This document shows positions 1 through 7,139 of a DNA stretch of 7,139 nt, one piece after another. The stretch lies in the IMG/VR virus record IMGVR_UViG_2541047945_000012, one strand, 5' to 3'. The stretch comes from a virus (taxonomy: Duplodnaviria; Heunggongvirae; Uroviricota; Caudoviricetes). Below the pieces are notes generated by a model that saw only the letters and a program-made list of their open reading frames with translations, did not search any database and was not told the origin of the DNA. Numbering within the stretch: position 1 is the first letter of the stretch; every line of letters starts with the position of its first letter. A program made the translations under genes and the position numbers.

Positions 1-516
1 ATGAAATTTAAAAAATGTCTTCTGCCTGTGGCAATGTTAGCGTCATTCACTCTGGCAGGATGCCAGTCAAATGCTGACGATCATGCTGCCGATGTTTATC
101 AAACCGATCAACTGAATACCAAACAAGAAACTAAAACCGTTAATATTATTTCCATTCTTCCCGCAAAAGTTGCCGTAGACAACTCCCAAAATAAACGGAA
201 CGCACAAGCCTTCGGCGCGCTTATTGGCGCAGTCGCTGGCGGTGTTATCGGCCACAACGTCGGGTCTGGCAGCAATTCCGGAACGACGGCAGGTGCAGTT
301 GGCGGCGGAGCTGTAGGCGCGGCAGCGGGTTCTATGGTGAATGATAAAACCTTAGTGGAAGGTGTTTCTTTAACCTATAAGGAAGGCACCAAAGTGTATA
401 CCTCTACCCAGGTGGGTAAAGAGTGCCAGTTTACGACAGGTTTAGCCGTTGTTATTACCACGACGTATAACGAAACGCGTATTCAGCCAAATACCAAATG
501 TCCTGAAAAGAGCTAA
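1..516 (+). CDS. yfgH: Outer-membrane lipoprotein with a glycine-zipper (YcfJ / 17-kDa-antigen-like) segment; YfgH-like
   Basis: ATG at 1, stop at 514-516, 171 aa. Lipoprotein signal peptide MKFKKCLLPVAMLASFTLAG-C with lipobox LAGC and Gln at +2. Gly/Ala-rich block GALIGAVAGGVIGHNVGSGSNSGTTAGAVGGGAVGAAAG resembles glycine-zipper lipoproteins. Symbol is from my recollection of E. coli yfgH-yfgI-guaA synteny and protein size, not from a search. Upstream signals lie outside the window. Confidence 0.8.
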   Translation: MKFKKCLLPVAMLASFTLAGCQSNADDHAADVYQTDQLNTKQETKTVNIISILPAKVAVDNSQNKRNAQAFGALIGAVAGGVIGHNVGSGSNSGTTAGAVGGGAVGAAAGSMVNDKTLVEGVSLTYKEGTKVYTSTQVGKECQFTTGLAVVITTTYNETRIQPNTKCPEKS

Positions 517-531
517 TAATCAGGAGGAGTC

Positions 532-1071
532 ATGAAGAAAGTTTTTCTTTGCGCCATCTTAGCCTCCTTAAGCTATCCGGCTATCGCCTCATCATTGCAG
601 GATCAACTCTCTGCTGTCGCAGAAGCGGAACAGCAAGGTAAAAATGAAGAGCAAAGGCAGCATGACGAATGGGTCGCGGAGCGCAACAGGGAAATCCAGC
701 AAGAGAAGCAACGTCGCGCAAATGCCCAGGCCGCCGCTAACAAAAGAGCGGCAACGGCAGCGGCAAATAAGAAAGCTCGTCAGGATAAACTGGACGCCGA
801 AGCCTCTGCGGACAAAAAACGCGATCAAAGTTATGAAGATGAGCTACGCAGCTTAGAGATTCAGAAACAAAAACTGGCGCTGGCGAAAGAAGAAGCCCGC
901 GTTAAGCGAGAAAACGAATTTATCGATCAGGAACTGAAGCACAAAGCTGCGCAAACCGATGTGGTGCAATCTGAAGCTGACGCCAACAGAAATATGACTG
1001 AAGGCGGTCGCGATCTGATGAAAAGCGTGGGCAAAGCAGAAGAGAACAAATCGGACAGCTGGTTTAATTAA
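532..1071 (+). CDS. yfgI: Secreted Ala/Lys/Glu/Gln-rich coiled-coil periplasmic protein (TolA-domain-II-like composition); YfgI-like
   Basis: SD AGGAGGAG at 521-528, ATG at 532, TAA at 1069-1071, 179 aa. Sec-type signal peptide MKKVFLCAILASLSYPAIA-SS. Mature part is strongly charged and low-complexity (AANKRAATAAANKKARQDKLDAEA...). Symbol is tentative, from recalled synteny and size only. Confidence 0.8.
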   Translation: MKKVFLCAILASLSYPAIASSLQDQLSAVAEAEQQGKNEEQRQHDEWVAERNREIQQEKQRRANAQAAANKRAATAAANKKARQDKLDAEASADKKRDQSYEDELRSLEIQKQKLALAKEEARVKRENEFIDQELKHKAAQTDVVQSEADANRNMTEGGRDLMKSVGKAEENKSDSWFN

Positions 1072-1110
1072 TCGATGTTAGTAACTTCAATCCTATAATT
1101 CTTGAAGATA

Positions 1111-1142
1111 AAAAACCCTCTGTAGTAACAGAGGGTTTTGTT
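1111..1142. terminator. Bidirectional rho-independent terminator
   Basis: Perfect 8-bp stem CCCTCTGT (1116-1123) / ACAGAGGG (1128-1135) with 4-nt loop AGTA, flanked by A5 (1111-1115) and T4 plus GTT (1136-1142). It lies 40 bp after the yfgI-like stop and between the convergent gene sets. Confidence 0.75.
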
Positions 1143-1163
1143 CATTCATAGTGCAGGGTCAAA

Positions 1164-1181
1164 TCATTCCCACTCAATTAT
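1164..1181 (-). other. guaA: Orphan 3'-terminal codons of guaA (GMP synthase), I-I-E-W-E-stop; candidate displaced att-side fragment
   Basis: Minus-strand codons ATA ATT GAG TGG GAA TGA (1181..1164), preceded in frame by TAA (1184..1182). GMP synthases end in ...TIEWE (recalled, not searched). Position and convergent orientation relative to the yfgI-like gene match recalled E. coli K-12 synteny. Only 4-5 codons long, so the call is weak taken alone. Confidence 0.4.
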
Positions 1182-1207
1182 TTACGACAATCATAACTAA
1201 TTGAGTG
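1171..1207. repeat. Perfect 10-bp inverted repeat CACTCAATTA / TAATTGAGTG with 17-bp spacer, overlapping the guaA terminal codons
   Basis: 1171-1180 cactcaatta and 1198-1207 taattgagtg are exact reverse complements. Located at the inferred host/prophage boundary. Confidence 0.6.
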
Positions 1208-1288
1208 ATAACATTTTTCCAAAACTTCATTTTTCTAGTACCGTTTTATATACCGTCACCGGAAATCAGTACCATGAAAAATGCCATG

Positions 1289-1771
1289 CTATCTGGTCAG
1301 GGTGTCGTATTGTTTTTCGCAGACTCTTCCGGCTTCGGCTGCCCGGTCAGCATACTCTGCCAGTTGTCTGTTTCTCTCGAGAGATTTGCTGAGCACGTCG
1401 GCAAGCAAAACTCCGGTGTCTGCGGCTGACGTCCCAGCGCCGACAATGGCGTTATACTGCCTGAGCTGCTCACGGATGGCAAAGAGTTGTTGCTGCAACC
1501 GGCCAGCGCGAGCGGCAGCATCAAGAGCATCATTGCGCGCCTGGTCGATCCTCTGCTGCGCTTCACGTTCATTGATCGATTTCTCCTGTTCGTAGTGCTG
1601 ACGAACTATCTCATCTTCAGCTTTGCGGTCTTCCTTCGCCTGCGCATACCCGGCATCGTACTGACGACTGCCGTGTGCATTCCAGGCTACAACTCCTGAT
1701 ATGACCAGAACAGCAAGCATCGCCATGATAACCAACTGTTTCCAGTATGCTTTTGCGAATGCCCAGATCAT
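1289..1771 (-). CDS. Rz-like i-spanin (inner-membrane spanin subunit)
   Basis: ATG at 1771..1769 overlaps the endolysin stop (ATGA, 1768-1771); SD AGGTG 8 nt upstream; TAG at 1291..1289; 160 aa. N-terminal TM ([21 protein letters not shown]) followed by a charged, Gln/Arg/Glu/Ala-rich predicted coiled coil and a C-terminal Cys. Classic position after the endolysin. Confidence 0.85.
1297..1572 (-). CDS. Rz1-like o-spanin (outer-membrane lipoprotein), fully embedded in the +1 frame of Rz
   Basis: ATG at 1572..1570 with SD AGGAGA 9 nt upstream; 91 aa. Signal peptide [26 protein letters not shown] with lipobox LAGC. Mature part about 65 aa, Pro-rich (8 Pro) with two Cys. Stops 8 nt before the Rz stop. 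Confidence 0.8.
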   Translation of the reverse strand: MNVKRSRGSTRRAMMLLMLPLALAGCSNNSLPSVSSSGSITPLSALGRQPQTPEFCLPTCSANLSRETDNWQSMLTGQPKPEESAKNNTTP

Positions 1772-2397
1772 ACCGCCAGCACCTTACTGGCAGTTATGTA
1801 TCGCGCGCGCCGGTCATCAATGCCGTTCCGGCCACCATTGATAAGCAGAGTTACACGTGCAATATCTCCGGTATACTTCATGCAGCCTTTGCTGGAGAAG
1901 AACCACGCCGCGCTACGAGCCGCGTATTCGTCCTGCGCCAGCAGTTCAGGACTCTCCAGCAGGTCAACCTTAAGACCGTTTCCACAGTCACGATAGTTAT
2001 TCAAACCGGTAATCTGGATAAGTCCGCGCCCACGGTAGTTCCAGCCGTCACCAGGGGCATTGTTCCCCATGCGTTTGCTGTACACCAGATTGGCGATCGC
2101 TCGCTGGCGCTCGAGTGGCAATGGTGGCTCACCAGCACGTCGCCCCAGTGCATTAGCCTGCCCCTGAGTGAGACGCCCAGCCCGAACGAAGTTAGCCAGT
2201 CCGCTGACGCTGTAGTTGAAATTCTCCTGCAACCGGGTGAAGCCCACAGACTCATGCCCGACCTGAGCAATAAACATTGCCAGATCTTCTGGTTTGCTGA
2301 TACCAAACTCTTTCATCGCAGAAGTTATATGCGAGAACCAGCGTGCGGCCAGCGCCTCGCTAATACCAGCAGCTCGCTGGAATTGTTTAATCTCCAT
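1768..2397 (-). CDS. Endolysin, glycoside hydrolase family 19 (chitinase-fold lysozyme), cytoplasmic (no signal or SAR segment)
   Basis: ATG at 2397..2395 with SD GAGG 8 nt upstream; TGA at 1770..1768; 209 aa ([13 protein letters not shown]...). The ORF-track start at 2562 is an upstream extension without an RBS. Contains GH19-type catalytic motifs [10 protein letters not shown] and GRGLIQITG (compare plant chitinase HETG and RGPIQ(I/L)S motifs, from memory). Confidence 0.85.
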
Positions 2398-2695
2398 GTT
2401 TAGACCTCGATATTTTGAAAATCTGAACAACGTTACCGCGTGTTTTAATAACCGCGGCAAGCATGACAGCGTTGATAATGACCTCAGATAAATCCACAGC
2501 CATTGGCGTGCGTAACCAGATTGCATAAGCGACACGAACTGGAATGCTGGCCGCAGCAACAATCAGGAAATAAGCAAGCCACCCACCCCATCGCCTGTGT
2601 TGAGAACCGTTTCTCCGAAATGTGGCAACTCGAACTGCTATACCGGCGCAAATAACCGCATTGGTGATAAGCAAAAAAAGCTCATGAGTTACCAT
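2387..2695 (-). CDS. Small membrane protein between holin and endolysin (2-3 TM; candidate antiholin, second holin or lysis regulator)
   Basis: ATG at 2695..2693 with SD GGGGAG 8 nt upstream; TAA at 2389..2387; 102 aa. Overlaps the holin 3' end by 14 bp and the endolysin start by 11 bp, suggesting translational coupling. TM1 [16 protein letters not shown], a highly basic loop ([15 protein letters not shown]), TM2 [22 protein letters not shown], and a possible short third hydrophobic segment. Confidence 0.7.
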
Positions 2696-3086
2696 CGTCT
2701 TTTCTCCCCGGAATTAACTCGCGTGGATTATCGGAACGGTGATAGAGCCAGATCCCAATTCGCACAGCGACGATTGCTGACACAAATGCACCGGCAGAGA
2801 AAACAATCCCTTTCTCGAAAGAATCCTGTGTGATTGTAGGGATCAGGCTGGCTATGCCGATAAGAATTGATGCTGCTGGTTTGTAGAATAGAAGTCCGCA
2901 GAGAAAGCTAAGCATCGACAAGAGCACGCGACGACGAATGGGATACTCTACCGCAGAGGTAACAAAAATCACCGCCCCAGCCAAAGACCCCAAAGCAACC
3001 TCAGGAGGAACTCCTGCTATCACTGCCGCCAAAGAACTCATGCTAAGCCACTGATTTAAAGTTTCACTGGTTAGTTGAGCTGACAT
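2682..3086 (-). CDS. Holin, class-I-like (three TM segments, charged C-terminal tail)
   Basis: ATG at 3086..3084 (MSAQLTSETLNQW...), preceded by GGTGG with a 5-nt spacer; an in-frame GTG at 3095 is the ORF-track start. TGA at 2684..2682; about 134 aa. Three hydrophobic segments (LAAVIAGVPPEVALGSLAGAVIFV; VLLSMLSFLCGLLFY...ILIGIASLI; IVFSAGAFVSAIVAVRIGIWLY) and a charged tail [19 protein letters not shown]. First gene of the lysis cluster. Confidence 0.75.
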   Translation of the reverse strand: MSAQLTSETLNQWLSMSSLAAVIAGVPPEVALGSLAGAVIFVTSAVEYPIRRRVLLSMLSFLCGLLFYKPAASILIGIASLIPTITQDSFEKGIVFSAGAFVSAIVAVRIGIWLYHRSDNPRELIPGRKDDGNS

Positions 3087-3143
3087 GTTTTCCACCGTTT
3101 ATATGCATAACTACCTCCTGAACAGTAAAGCATTACGCATGAT

Positions 3144-3159
3144 AAACCATTTATGGTTT
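3144..3159. promoter_or_regulatory. Perfect 16-bp palindrome AAACCAT-TT-ATGGTTT just downstream of the putative promoter (candidate operator or 5'-UTR hairpin)
   Basis: 7-bp arms are exact reverse complements with a 2-bp centre. Starts about 12 bp downstream of the -10 hexamer, so it overlaps the predicted transcription start region of the lysis operon. Confidence 0.45.
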
Positions 3160-3170
3160 TTTGTTACCCA

Positions 3171-3199
3171 ATATTACCAATCCAATTCGCGATGGTCAA
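3171..3199 (-). promoter_or_regulatory. Candidate sigma70 promoter for the lysis operon: TTGACC - 17 nt - TAATAT, with TGn extended -10
   Basis: On the minus strand, -35 TTGACC (3199..3194), 17-nt spacer, -10 TAATAT (3176..3171) preceded by TGG. AT-rich upstream. Predicted start near 3164, about 78 nt upstream of the holin ATG. Confidence 0.45.
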
Positions 3200-3451
3200 A
3201 ACATATCCACAGCGGTAAGTTTGAGTGTTTTCATTTCCAAAACTTTATACAATAATATATGCAGTCTGTTATTTTTACGCACAATAAAAACACGATACCA
3301 GCTATTTCGCCATAAATACAATTTCCTTTAATGCTGCCAACAGTGCCTGCAAAACATATAACAGAACACATAAATAACAGGCATAATATAGATTTAATAA
3401 TCCAAGTGCATATAAATATCATTTAAGAAGTTAAGATCATTATTATAATAA

Positions 3452-3483
3452 CAATAACCCCGCTGTTTTATTCGGGGTTATTG
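3452..3483. terminator. Hairpin terminator downstream of the tail fibre gene
   Basis: Stem AACCCCG (3456-3462) / CGGGGTT (3473-3479), extendable to 11 bp, with a 10-nt loop. On the minus strand it is followed by a U-rich tract (TTATTATAATA). It begins 10 bp after the tail fibre stop (3493-3495). Confidence 0.5.
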
Positions 3484-3492
3484 CATTTATTA

Positions 3493-4029
3493 TTACATTG
3501 ACATTAATATAAACATGGCTAATTCGTCATAACGAATTCCGTAGCGTCCTCCTGCTTTTTTTACAAGAATCATATCTCCTGTTTTATATTGAGAATAAAT
3601 TTTCTCACCTGTATCAGGATCTGTGCTCTCTTCAGTTATCACCTCTTCATCCCATACGTCAGGCCATTCATCGTAACACCAAAAAGCATATTGCTCAGGG
3701 TTTAAACCATGCTTTCTAAGAATATCCCCTACGGTTTGAGCGCCAACGCCAAAATGATACCTGGACGACTCAATTCCTTTGTGATTAATTGAGTCATTAA
3801 ATTTAAATTTATAGATGACTGACTTTATTTCAATAGCGGCATCACGCTCTGCATTAAGAATATCATATCTTGTTTTAAGAGTTTCATCTGACGTATTGAT
3901 TGACCCGGTTCCTGCATAGATAACAGAGCATCTGTTTGATGGCTGTCCAATAGCTTTAACATTATCATCAACAGGAGCTATTTTATTAGCATCTGCCAAC
4001 CACCAGTCTGTTCCATCAGCGTGACCGAT
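3493..4029 (-). pseudogene. Tail fibre/tailspike gene, C-terminal fragment (distal to the IS2 insertion) including an intramolecular-chaperone-like domain
   Basis: In frame with fragment 5361-6914 once IS2 and one copy of the 5-bp duplication are removed. TAA at 3495..3493. Encodes ...GHADGTDWWLADANKIAPVDD...SINTSDETLKTRYDIL...GGRYGIRYDELAMFILMSM. The first 9 codons of ORF-track entry 3493..4056 are IS2-derived. Confidence 0.8.
4025..4029. repeat. IS2 target-site duplication, copy 1 (CCGAT)
   Basis: ccgat immediately flanks the IS2 end at 4030; identical to 5361-5365. Confidence 0.85.
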
Positions 4030-4040
4030 TGGATTTGCCC

Positions 4041-4946
4041 CTATATTTCCAGACATCTGTTATCACTTAACCCATTACAAGCCCGCTGCCGCAGATATTC
4101 CCGTGGCGAGCGATAACCCAGCGCACTATGCGGATGCCATTCGTTATAATGCTCGAACGCCTCTGCAAGGTTCTTTGCTGCCGTTAACCCGTCTGGTTTG
4201 GGCATGATACTGATGTAGTCACGCTTTATCGTTTTCACGAAGCTCTCTGCTATTCCGTTACTCTCCGGACTCCGCACCGCCGTGTTCTTCGGTTCAAGTC
4301 CCAACATCCGGGCGAACTGGCGTGTTTCATTAGCCCGGTAGCATGAACCATTATCCGTCAGCCACTCCACTGGAGACGACGGAAGATCGTTGCCGAAGCG
4401 GCGTTCCACCGCTCCCAGCATGACGTCCTGTACTGTTTCACTGTTGAAGCCGCCGGTAGTGACCGCCCAGTGCAGTGCCTCACGATCACAGCAGTCCAGC
4501 GCGAACGTGACACGCAGTCTCTCTCCGTTATCACAGCAGAACTCGAACCCGTCAGAGCACCATCGCTGATTGCTTTCTTTCACGGCCACTCTGCCTGTAT
4601 GTGCCCGTTTCGATGGCGGTACAGCAGGTTTTCGCTCAAGCAACAGCGCATTCTGGCGCATGATCCGGTAAACACGTTTGGCATTGATCGCAGGCATACC
4701 ATCAAGTTCTGCCTGTCTGCGAAGCAGCGCCCATACCCGACGATAACCATACGTTGGCAGCTCTCCGATAACATGGTGTATACGGAGAAGCACATCCGTA
4801 TCATCAGTGTGACGACTGCGGCGGCCATCCATCCAGTCATCGGTTCGTCTGAGAATGACGTGCAACTGCGCACGCGACACCCGGAGACAACGGCTGACTA
4901 AGCTTACTCCCCATCCCCGGGCAATAAGGGCGCGTGCGCTATCCAC
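4041..4946 (-). CDS. insD: IS2 transposase OrfB (InsD; DDE catalytic domain), normally made as an OrfAB fusion by -1 frameshift
   Basis: 301-aa [37 protein letters not shown]...[11 protein letters not shown], recognised as IS2 InsD. Overlaps insC in the -1 frame at the A6G site. Confidence 0.9.
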
Positions 4947-5269
4947 TTTTTTGCCCGTCCATATTCAACGGCTTCTTTGAGGAGTTCATTTTCCATCGTT
5001 TTCTTGCCGAGCAGGCGCTGGAGTTCTTTAATCTGCTTCATGGCGGCAGCAAGTTCAGAGGCAGGAACAACCTGTTCTCCGGCGGCGACAGCAGTAAGAC
5101 TTCCTTCCTGGTATTGCTTACGCCAGAGAAATAACTGGCTGGCTGCTACACCATGTTGCCGGGCAACGAGGGAGACCGTCATCCCCGGTTCAAAGCTCTG
5201 CTGAACAATTGCGATCTTTTCCTGTGTGGTACGCCGTCTGCGTTTCTCCGGCCCTAAGACATCAATCAT
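4904..5269 (-). CDS. insC: IS2 OrfA (InsC; helix-turn-helix DNA-binding/regulatory protein)
   Basis: ATG at 5269..5267 with SD GGAG 5 nt upstream; 121 aa [41 protein letters not shown]... The ORF-track start at 5314 is an upstream extension. Confidence 0.9.
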
Positions 5270-5360
5270 CTGTTCTCCAATGACTAGTCTAAAAACTAGT
5301 ATTAAGACTATCACTTATTTAAGTGATATTGGTTGTCTGGAGATTCAGGGGGCCAGTCTA

Positions 5361-5365
5361 CCGAT
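5361..5365. repeat. IS2 target-site duplication, copy 2 (CCGAT)
   Basis: ccgat immediately after the IS2 end at 5360; identical to 4025-4029. Confidence 0.85.
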
Positions 5366-6914
5366 TCTTACTCTTATCCCACTTCTAATATTTAAACTTC
5401 CAGTATTACTCTGTAAATTACAATCTCCTGAAGTTGGTCCAAGCAGTACAGTTTTACCAACACCACATACTACTCTGGCATTTCCTTTTTGTGATACGAG
5501 TCTTGACTCACCTCCTGACTGCTCAGGAAGAGATTTATGGTCTACAAATGCATCGCGGGGGTTAAATACACCGTCTCCAGAATTATATCTTCCTCCTGTA
5601 TAGTTGTTAAATACAGGACCCCAGTCAACGCCATTGCCTTCAGAGCACCCGACCATTCTAAGCACTCGAGTATTCCCTGCTGCATATGGTAATGAGCTTG
5701 TTGATTGCCTGGAAGCTATCATACGTGCTCCATAACCAATAGCATTACCACCATTTATAGTTACATATGCTGGCTGGCTTTCGAAATATGTACTGTAAAA
5801 GTTCATATTTCCACAGTCATGTAGATGAATAAGAACATCATCCCATCCCTGAATGGTTCCTGCATGTACCTGTACACCGCGAACTGGTTCCCCTGAAACC
5901 TCCATACACTCTGATGGCCGGCTGAATGGCTGAGACAGGTATTGCGATGTGGCAAGCAGATGTGTGTGGTGATACAGGCTGGTAATGTAGCAATCGAAAA
6001 ATTGCGTTCCCGCCATACCAAAGTTATCTATGTCATTTCGCCGTATAGTAGAACCTACTGTTGCCTCAGAAGCGTTAGACACTCCAGTAAATACTAACTT
6101 ATCACCGGATACGGATAATCCTGAATAAGTGAAATTCCTGCCTCCCGATCTTAAAACCCCGGACGTTTCGAAGGTGTGGCTTGATGACCATGGGATTTCG
6201 ATAGTGCTGGACGTTACCGCTGTAATTCGGAATACATCATGGGCGCGGATCGAAACACCCTTGAATCCCTGGAATCTACAGTGATAATAGTTTTCATCCT
6301 CGCCCTGAGCGGCCAGCGTGCCAGATACAGGAATGTTCGTTTTTAAAAGTGCCGTCTTGCGCCAGTATCCAACCACCTGCAAATTGCGGTATTCATTGCC
6401 AAAAGACGCACGTGACCAAATACCTACATCCCACTCATCGCCAAGACCGGTATTTGCAATGTCTTTATAACCATCCAGCCCATTGAAATATGGAACAATA
6501 CGAAAGTTCTCAAGGCGAACACATCCTGTCTCTGGCATCAATATTGCGGCAGAGAATGGTTTAAGCGTGGCTCTTGTAGCCCCATTAGCATCACCGTTAG
6601 TAAAATCCAATAAATCATATGATGACGCAGGTGCCGTTGTTGTATACGGGTCTTCGGAAGATGGATTAGAAACCACACCACCACTAACATCCATATTAGA
6701 AACACAATCTACAGTATATTTTTTATTTCCTACACCGTACATCAGGAATGTGGTCCCTGTGGTAATATCAGGAGCAAATGTTGCAGTATATCCAGAGACC
6801 CATTTGCCCACACCAAGACCAATTATCCCACCACCAGAAACAGGTGTTAACGTATCCGTTATTACATACGCATTATCAGTACCATAAATAACCTTTCCTG
6901 TGTTAATGGCAGCT
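5361..6914 (-). pseudogene. Tail fibre/tailspike gene, central fragment between the IS3-family element and IS2; 5' end missing
   Basis: Open frame of about 517 codons running from the IS3-family terminus (6915) to the IS2 terminus. Gly/Ser/Thr/Asn/Tyr-rich, as in receptor-binding fibre or spike bodies. No credible start codon or RBS inside the fragment, so the N-terminal part must lie beyond the IS element. Codons 1-61 of the 584-aa ORF-track entry are out-of-frame readthrough of the IS transposase. Confidence 0.7.
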
Positions 6915-7139
6915 TGAACCGCCCCGGGTTTCCTGGAGAGTATTTTATCTGTGAACTCAGGCTGCCAGATCATCGTTTCCGATGGAAGCATAATAAGCTT
7001 TTTCTGCTTCTGCCGGAGGAGTATGGCCCAGCCTTTCCAGCAATCGTCGATTGTTATACCAGTCCACCCACGTGAGTGTGGCCAGTTCCACTTCTGCACG
7101 GTTTTTCCAGCTCTTACGGTGTATTACCTCCGCTTTGTA
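6915..7139 (-). mobile_element. IS3-family insertion sequence (IS629/IS1203-like), partial; right end only, continuing beyond the window
   Basis: Terminal sequence on the plus strand from 6915: TGAACCGCCCCGGGTTTCCTGGAGAGTATTTTATCTGTGAACTCAGG, the TG...-type IS3-family end that I recall for IS629. It is followed by the transposase OrfB C-terminus. Exact IS identity not verified. Confidence 0.7.
6957..7139 (-). CDS. IS3-family transposase OrfB, C-terminal 60 codons (5'-truncated by window edge)
   Basis: Minus-strand translation ...YKAEVIHRKSWKNRAEVELATLTWVDWYNNRRLLERLGHTPPAEAEKAYYASIGNDDLAA-stop, with TGA at 6959..6957. This is a typical C-terminal tail of an IS3-family DDE transposase. Confidence 0.75.
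   Translation of the reverse strand, partial: YKAEVIHRKSWKNRAEVELATLTWVDWYNNRRLLERLGHTPPAEAEKAYYASIGNDDLAA

Follow-up and report, generated by a model that had tools for sequence, protein, structure and literature searches.

Two insertion sequences (ISs) lie within what looks like a single phage adsorption gene in the stretch of DNA analysed here (the window, 7,139 nucleotides), raising the question of whether the pieces once formed one gene and, if they did, how that gene was broken. A preliminary description of the locus had proposed a tail fibre or tailspike gene inactivated by two independent IS insertions, next to an apparently intact lysis cassette in a defective prophage. In E. coli UMEA 3592-1, an epsilon15-like podovirus prophage of the Uetakevirus type is integrated at the 3' end of guaA, beside yfgI, and the window covers its late end. 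The tailspike gene of this prophage has almost certainly been split by IS2 and IS629, in an ordinary and recent case of IS-mediated pseudogenisation of a prophage gene.

One gene in three pieces

IS2 is complete in the window, with a length of 1331 bp (4030..5360, minus strand), and is oriented like the tailspike gene. It starts at 4030 with TGGATTTGCCCC and finishes at 5360 with GGGGGCCAGTCTA, which we take to be the IS2 termini, while its length and ORF content were measured. The 121-aa product of orfA (4904-5269, minus; a longer GTG-started ORF extends to 5314) matched the NCBIfam model of IS2 TnpA over positions 1-121 of 121 (275.8 bits, cut-off 229), and orfB (4041-4946, minus) matched IS2 TnpB over 1-301 of 301 (727.6 bits, cut-off 597). 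The Pfam domains HTH_Tnp_1, rve and rve_3 were also found in the element, and the overlap of orfA and orfB contains the frameshift heptamer AAAAAAG on the minus strand (CTTTTTT at 4946-4952). A 5-bp target-site duplication, CCGAT, flanks IS2 at 4025..4029 and 5361..5365; on the coding strand it reads ATCGG and falls in codons Ile814-Gly815. Every coordinate proposed earlier was correct.

When IS2 and one copy of the duplication were deleted in silico (4030-5365), translation of the minus strand gave one continuous frame of 694 codons, without frameshift or internal stop; its sole stop is at 3493-3495, against 71 and 35 stops in the remaining two frames. The junction (...SLNIRSGIRVRI-GHADGTDWWLADANK...) was identical to the one read by hand in the preliminary description. 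The frame is not a product of chance, because the IS2 target is present without interruption in 15 complete E. coli genomes out of 5426, and in these the two flanks abut with an overlap of exactly 5 bp (for example, 1711781-1715811 and 1715807-1717360 in NZ_CP067235.1). The two fragments joined in this way are a central one (5366..6914, minus; codons 298-813), assigned by PHROG 1171 and its relatives to a receptor-binding and putative depolymerase domain, and a 3' one (3493..4029, minus; codons 814-991 plus the stop), assigned from the excision, Pfam and PDB matches to a stalk and Peptidase_S74 chaperone.

An IS3-family element had been suggested to truncate the 5' end of the gene at 6915. This was borne out, and the element is IS629 with a 3-bp duplication. 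Its right end (6915..7139, minus) consists of the final 60 codons of orfB together with the terminal repeat TGAACCGCCCCGGG; the ORF at the end of the window matched the C-terminus of IS3-family transposases (Pfam rve_2 and rve_3; NCBIfam). Many E. coli genomes contain IS3-family transposase loci with 100% identity to the right 225 bp, and 208 bp of the opposite (left) end, found in the source scaffold, are 100% identical to features annotated as 'insertion sequence: IS3 family IS629'. The name comes from Stx-phage records, RefSeq annotation of E. coli giving only 'IS3 family transposase'. The window stops at a scaffold gap within IS629, where a run of N starts in the source scaffold (L002). 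The element is seen at its ends only, over 209 bp and 227 bp, and its interior, a gap of 999 N, could conceivably hold extra DNA. The duplication, GCT at 6912..6914, reads AGC in the coding direction and falls in codon Ala298; it is present at both IS629 junctions of L002 (5705-5707 and 7143-7145).

The 5' portion of the gene was found immediately beyond IS629, where 297 N-terminal codons sit directly across the element in the source scaffold. Removal of both elements gave a gene of 2976 nt and 991 codons with no internal stop, and its product had zero amino-acid differences from an intact protein (P0001) carried by at least 24 public contigs. The three pieces are therefore fragments of one gene, as had been supposed, and each IS has its own target-site duplication, in agreement with two independent insertions. 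Compared with intact alleles in three related prophages (L004, L006 and L007), the gene differs by 2 synonymous nucleotides. The same two junctions and chimeric ORFs were present in a second, separately assembled isolate, UMEA 3609-1, the sister of UMEA 3592-1. Only these two closely related isolates carry the insertions, with none found in the 15 complete genomes or in any of the many draft genomes that have the gene.

The predicted tailspike and its relatives

The reconstructed gene is, by sequence, that of a modular tailspike with an epsilon15/phiV10-type N-terminal anchor, a central domain and, at the C-terminus, a chaperone of the self-cleaving Peptidase_S74 type. The full length was matched by PHROG 1171, 'tail spike protein', and NCBIfam yielded no tailspike model. 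Residues 1-230 are 70-76% identical to the tailspikes of epsilon15, phiV10 and SPN1S, and the N-terminus also matched that of Dpo31 in PDB (2.7e-25). For the central fragment there were 326 representative relatives. A profile of 61 relatives matched GH55 glucanases, phi29 gp12 and pectin lyases in PDB, mostly in the N-terminal cap region (positions ~50-160), and the same profile also matched the tailspikes of LKA1, phiAB6, Sf6 and CBA120, again mostly via the cap. The central domain is probably a pectin-lyase-like beta-helix.

The Peptidase_S74 domain (PF13884) scored 23.4 bits in the 694-aa piece and 21.9 bits in the full-length protein, on either side of the Pfam cut-off of 22. C-terminal residues ~820-990 aligned with three S74 chaperone proteins in PDB, namely a tail fibre (7y5s, 5e-21), EndoNF of K1F (3gw6, 9e-13) and the L-shaped tail fibre pb1 of T5 (4uw8, 1e-10). 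A Ser-x4-Lys motif, S860-DETLK865, aligns with TSDARLK of 7y5s at the cleavage region. The chaperone would be expected to aid folding of the trimer and then to cleave itself off after Ser860. The domain upstream of it differs from that of EndoNF in that it does not read as an endosialidase beta-propeller; a 35-residue match to End_tail_spike was below the cut-off.

The resemblance to Uetakevirus tailspikes (epsilon15 gp20, phiV10 and vB_EcoP_ZX5), at the 70-76% identity given above, covers the N-terminal ~220-230 residues. Past residue ~220 the spikes of epsilon15 and phiV10 are, at this sensitivity, unrelated to ours, whose receptor-binding part is instead common to other types of phage. Residues 217-991 are 72% identical to the tailspike of YZ1, a T7-like Escherichia phage (Kayfunavirus), and the C-terminal 79% of our protein is 97% identical to 901-aa P22-type tailspikes of E. 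coli prophages, in which it is fused to the P22 head-binding domain (Head_binding, PF09008) and annotated as 'phage tailspike protein'. The YZ1 and P22-type copies are intact, and their virion-attachment domains are T7 gp17-like or P22 head-binding, whereas ours is epsilon15-like. As judged from these alignments, one receptor-binding and chaperone module is common to epsilon15-like, YZ1 and P22-type spikes. P0001 identifies this module on epsilon15-like, P22-like and T7-like phages, which is relevant to studies of host range and depolymerases.

The prophage and its lysis genes

Two chromosomal genes open the window, both named from annotation in complete E. coli genomes: yfgH, which encodes a glycine-zipper lipoprotein (1..516, plus), and yfgI (DUF5384; 532..1071, plus), which borders the prophage. 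A terminator-like hairpin lies at 1112-1139. The prophage boundary is marked by the att core ATTGAGTGGGAATGATT (1162..1178, minus), a 17-mer that duplicates the 3' end of guaA by an exact match with a chance expectation of 0. This 17-mer has been reported as the attP/attB core of a Uetakevirus, vB_EcoP_ZX5, at the guaA 3' end (PMC9782041), and that phage shares both its att core and its integration site with our prophage. In another strain (locus L005), a remnant of this prophage, 9.3 kb long, is bracketed by two copies of the core, of which one adjoins the integrase and lies at the stop codon of guaA; the remnant has kept the integrase, a few small genes, an intact tailspike gene and the lysis genes. 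An intact relative (L001) encodes an epsilon15-type capsid staple gp10, a Bbp16 cement protein, a T7 gp14-like core protein and a portal. The Uetakevirus type and the guaA site were assigned because of these structural genes of the relative, the att core identical to that of vB_EcoP_ZX5 and the guaA and integrase flanks of the remnant.

The preliminary description had envisaged a defective prophage in an IS-rich host such as Shigella or pathogenic E. coli, and this held only in part. The host is E. coli, a clinical isolate, and Shigella is ruled out by the source names (E. coli UMEA 3592-1 and UMEA 3609-1). A high IS load is not required to account for the insertions, as 4123 of the 5426 complete E. 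coli genomes contain the IS629 end sequence. The term defective is supported for the adsorption function only; the view of the source strain ends ~4.8 kb beyond the start of the tailspike gene, which is 10 kb past the 3' fragment used in the look-up, and over these ~4.8 kb upstream the order and lengths of the genes match those of relatives.

The lysis cassette was described as apparently intact, and it is. It consists of four ORFs on the minus strand, with lengths as in intact prophages: a second putative holin of 134 aa (Phage_holin_8; 2682..3086; Pfam 1.5e-11; PHROG 198, 'holin'), a 102-aa holin (Phage_holin_3_7; 2387..2695; Pfam 5.2e-27; PHROG 217, 'holin'), a 209-aa endolysin of glycoside hydrolase family 19 (1768..2397; Pfam Glyco_hydro_19; PHROG 181, 'endolysin', 5.6e-90), which is as long as in the intact prophages, and a 160-aa Rz-like i-spanin (1289..1771; Pfam DUF2514, 1.5e-42; PHROG 312, 'Rz-like spanin', 2e-59). 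An ORF embedded in another frame (1297-1572), with the lipobox LAGC in its translation, is a candidate o-spanin. The 2314 nt downstream of the tailspike gene, from the lysis cassette to att, are 100% identical in DNA to L004, L006 and L007. Uetakevirus phages have their tailspike gene in the same position, upstream of a lysis cassette with two holins, a GH19 endolysin and Rz.

Between the tailspike and lysis genes is a spacer of ~30% GC (3096..3492), delimited by composition. A terminator-like hairpin, ATAACCCCG...CGGGGTTAT, lies at 3454-3481, just 3' of the tailspike stop codon, and similarity to the region 3' of the P22-type tailspike copy stops just past it. A 63-aa hydrophobic ORF in the spacer (3231-3422, minus) was considered as a moron or conversion gene and rejected; it had no Pfam or PHROG match and no Shine-Dalgarno sequence, it is without annotation in RefSeq relatives, and the spacer is absent from the P22-type context. 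The promoter and terminator scan of 1050-4100 returned consensus-level matches only, and a scan of the whole window with Rfam found no family at the gathering score. A TTGACC-17-TAATAT site is present at 3199-3171 (minus), upstream of the holin genes.

Decay, misassembly or selection

Two separate transposition events have almost certainly broken the 991-codon gene. IS629 entered codon 298, in the cap motif that is conserved at the N-terminal side of the central domain, and left a duplication of 3 bp; IS2 entered at codons 814-815, which separate the central domain from the stalk and chaperone, and left one of 5 bp. Either insertion by itself would block synthesis of the full-length tailspike, and virions of the prophage should therefore fail to recognise their host. 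The insertions are evolutionarily recent, because the rest of the gene has not decayed and the lysis cassette shows no difference from that of intact relatives.

It is exceedingly improbable that the interruptions are an artefact of assembly or scaffolding, in which repeats were misassembled into a gene that is really intact. IS elements are classic places for contig breaks and misjoins, and a run of 999 N does interrupt IS629 in the scaffold. However, IS2 was assembled contiguously with both of its junctions and a perfect 5-bp duplication, and both IS629 junctions were seen with the 3-bp duplication, removal of the element yielding exactly the 2976-nt gene. Misassembly does not generate target-site duplications, and identical chimeric ORFs are present in two separately assembled isolates.

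Another possibility, which we consider very unlikely, is selected domestication rather than neutral decay: loss of the tailspike would benefit the lysogen, for which infectious phage may no longer be released or depolymerase activity may be ended, and the lysis cassette would be retained for use by the host, which may be the release of cell contents or vesicles. The untouched cassette, identical to that of intact relatives, would fit with this, as would two insertions in one 3-kb gene and the 9.3-kb remnant, whose tailspike and lysis genes indicate a tendency of this prophage end to be retained. However, the tailspike is intact in that same remnant, a point against selection aimed specifically at its loss, and a divergence of only 2 synonymous differences means that not enough time has passed for the conserved lysis genes to signal selection. 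The restriction of the insertions to two closely related isolates also speaks against it, and a second insertion is neutral once the first has inactivated the gene. There is only a slim chance that the double insertion was a selected domestication step that kept a functional lysis module, or, as a variant, that the IS2-initiated 187-aa ORF (3493-4056) yields an active free S74 chaperone and stalk fragment.

Recent IS-mediated pseudogenisation, our preferred explanation, has a parallel in E. coli O157:H7, as an earlier paper reports gene inactivation via IS629 insertion in O157:H7 strains (PMC3271280). The element is the same, is also annotated inside Stx-phage records, and acts in the same manner, by simple insertion with a short duplication and truncation of an ORF. 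Our case differs in that the host is non-O157, the prophage is an epsilon15-like podovirus and not a lambdoid Stx phage, and IS2 is also present in the same gene.

Taken alone, the case is of little importance; it is a clean instance, reconstructible in full, of the recent pseudogenisation by ISs of a prophage gene for host recognition. Predictors of prophage completeness would rate this one too highly if they counted only genes for lysis and structure. Fragments of such tailspike pseudogenes enter annotation as proteins in their own right, labelled 'hypothetical' or 'tail fiber domain', and PHROG family 33794 (phrog_33794, 'unknown function') appears to be derived from exactly this chimeric fragment, a curation artefact that is worth flagging.

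Two insertions in the tailspike gene

The window was read in its entirety and ORFs were listed for both strands. The IS2 element at 4030-5360 (1331 bp) carries two overlapping minus-strand ORFs, which match the IS2-specific TnpA and TnpB models of NCBIfam end to end, well over the curated cut-offs, and contain the Pfam domains HTH_Tnp_1, rve and rve_3. It is directly flanked on both sides by the target-site duplication CCGAT (4025-4029 and 5361-5365). Minus-strand translation after removing 4030-5365 gave 694 sense codons up to a stop at 3493-3495, with the junction peptide ...IRSGIRVRI-GHADGTDWW...; the remaining two frames of the excised sequence held 71 and 35 stops. This confirmed the single frame free of internal stops proposed in the preliminary description, including its coordinates and junction. 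The open frame is not due to chance, since the uninterrupted sequence was found in 15 of 5426 complete E. coli genomes, where the two flanks meet and share 5 bp (NZ_CP067235.1, for instance, has flank matches at 1711781-1715811 and 1715807-1717360). The IS2 target, ATCGG, corresponds to tailspike codons Ile814-Gly815, and the stalk and chaperone are thereby cut off from the central domain.

A chimeric ORF of 187 aa (3493-4056, minus strand) uses an ATG within the terminal repeat of IS2 as its start codon and continues into the stalk and S74 chaperone of the tailspike. Its RefSeq label is 'tail fiber domain-containing protein' (WP_021572903.1), and there is no indication of expression or function. 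An exact-protein look-up with this ORF led to scaffold KE702418.1 of assembly GCA_000461395.1, for which the strain is named as Escherichia coli UMEA 3592-1, and the identical protein is also present in UMEA 3609-1.

The IS3-family element thought to cut off the 5' end at 6915 is IS629, and the missing 5' portion was located right across it in the source scaffold. The sequence from 6915 starts TGAACCGCCCCGGG and holds the 3'-terminal 60 codons of an IS3-family transposase gene. At 7139, within IS629, the scaffold passes into a run of 999 Ns (scaffold 5917-6915); this is why the window stops there and why the interior of the element is unsequenced in the assembly. The first 208 bp of the element beyond the gap are 100% identical to 'IS3 family IS629' elements in Stx-phage records, and 297 tailspike codons, beginning MTVSTEVDHNEYTGNG..., lie immediately past it. 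AGC on either side of IS629 represents a 3-bp duplication. The insertion is inside codon Ala298 and interrupts the N-terminal cap motif of the central domain, between WQA and AINTG; both IS629 and IS2 are oriented like the tailspike gene.

When scaffold 4815-5707 and both fragments from the window were joined and a single copy of each duplication was kept, the result was an open frame of 2976 nt (991 codons, no internal stop), exactly as long as the intact gene annotated in strain SBF22 (WP_089552410.1). In the proposed comparison with intact alleles, none of the 991 residues differed from P0001, the intact tailspike protein found on at least 24 contigs, and the DNA showed 2 differences, both synonymous, from three loci with intact alleles (L004, L006 and L007). 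The 2314 nt downstream of the tailspike are 100% identical to these three loci; this stretch takes in the spacer, the two holin genes, the endolysin and spanin genes and everything as far as att. Compared with SBF22, the lysis genes differ by 2 nt and lengths are kept in 4/4 ORFs, so the cassette had rightly been called apparently intact.

It is very unlikely that the elements were put into the gene by misassembly, as both carry target duplications, the reconstruction of the gene is exact and two assemblies agree, both insertion junctions being also present in UMEA 3609-1. The data show two independent transpositions with their exact targets, in a gene and next to a lysis module that are otherwise unaltered. 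The insertions are recent, and they alone set this prophage end apart from its functional-looking relatives.

Modular make-up of the tailspike

In tblastn searches of phage genomes, residues 1-230 showed 70-76% identity to tailspikes from Uetakevirus-type podoviruses, among them epsilon15, phiV10 and SPN1S, and residues 217-991 showed 72% identity to a YZ1 protein (T7-like Kayfunavirus) and approximately 41% to Vectrevirus spikes. A protein search also retrieved 901-aa 'phage tailspike protein' entries, in which a P22 head-binding domain (PF09008) is followed by the same C-terminal 79% (97% identity). One such copy is held by strain SBF22 itself, in a P22-like prophage (L008), and DNA similarity 3' of it stops just past the terminator hairpin. 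The receptor-binding and S74-chaperone module is common to three different podovirus chassis: epsilon15-like, P22-like and T7-like YZ1. This module (approximately residues 217-991) sits at 3493-6914 in the window, 3335-6253 in L003 and 4001-6706 in L008.

Over its full length the protein matches PHROG 1171 'tail spike protein', and its C-terminus matches Peptidase_S74 and the solved chaperone domains 7y5s (5e-21), EndoNF 3gw6 (9e-13) and T5 pb1 4uw8 (1e-10). In S74 domains, a Ser/Lys pair carries out self-cleavage after trimer folding; S860-DETLK of the tailspike aligned with TSDARLK of 7y5s. Among 50%-identity representatives, 326 relatives of the central domain were found. A profile of 61 of them matched GH55 beta-1,3-glucanases, the phi29 appendage gp12, pectin lyases and mannuronan epimerases, as well as the LKA1, phiAB6, Sf6 and CBA120 tailspikes, all of which are right-handed beta-helix proteins. 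Because these matches pass only through the N-terminal cap motif FGAxGDG...AxQxA, the beta-helix fold of the central domain is likely rather than established.

Consequences, host and rival readings

With the gene disrupted, full-length tailspike would no longer be made and particles would be unable to adsorb; IS polarity may also lower read-through transcription into the lysis genes. Disruption could alternatively reflect selected domestication of the prophage. This is not supported, as there is too little divergence for conservation to be informative, the disrupted allele occurs only in two closely related isolates, and the tailspike is intact in L005, a remnant of the same prophage.

The preliminary reading of a tailspike disrupted by two IS elements with a reconstructible frame therefore holds, except for its host guess (an IS-rich host such as Shigella); the source is E. 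coli UMEA 3592-1. There is no need to invoke a Shigella-like IS load: IS629 is annotated inside Stx prophages, 4123 of 5426 complete E. coli genomes carry its end sequence, and IS insertion into E. coli prophage genes is commonplace. The disruption is a further instance of this well-known process, and the more useful by-products are the tailspike module on three podovirus chassis and the likely origin of PHROG 33794. This family of 'unknown function' (542 positions) appears to have been built from the pseudogene fragment itself, because it matches the IS629-tailspike-IS2 chimeric ORF (5348-6991, minus strand) end to end, including the IS629-derived first and IS2-derived last residues, and the UMEA 3592-1 protein EQZ35470.1 in GenBank has a length of exactly 542 aa.

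Prophage type, att site and spacer

Upstream of the tailspike, the intact SBF22 relative has several epsilon15-type genes, which encode a portal, large injection proteins, a T7 gp14-like core protein, a cement protein of Bbp16 type and the capsid staple gp10. In the source strain, gene order and lengths are as in intact relatives for approximately 4.8 kb ahead of the tailspike gene. For Uetakevirus vB_EcoP_ZX5, the 17-mer ATTGAGTGGGAATGATT has been reported as attP/attB core at the guaA 3' end (PMC9782041). An exact copy occurs once in the window, at 1162-1178 (minus strand); it is a duplicated guaA 3' end and marks the prophage/chromosome junction beside yfgI. The 9.3-kb L005 remnant (5983-15307, GCA_000397685.1) is bracketed by two att cores, in the order guaA, integrase, Bro-N, three small genes, intact tailspike (P0001), complete lysis cassette and yfgI, with head, injection and replication genes all deleted. 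The window therefore shows an epsilon15-like prophage, integrated at guaA, at its right-hand end.

Between the window and SBF22 there are 34 differences (32 substitutions and 2 single-base indels), 26 of them in the chromosomal yfgH-yfgI segment (1-1107) and just 6 in the 2.85 kb of prophage (1179-4029). The two strains resemble each other far more in the prophage than in the adjoining chromosome, as would fit a recent horizontal spread of the phage.

The spacer between the tailspike and holin genes (3096-3492) has approximately 30% GC, and similarity to prophages with other tailspikes is lost within it at approximately 3156-3183. A 63-aa hydrophobic ORF in the spacer (3231-3422, minus strand) had no match in Pfam or PHROG and no ribosome-binding site. 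The spacer also has a sigma-70-like site ahead of the holin gene, at 3199-3171 on the minus strand.
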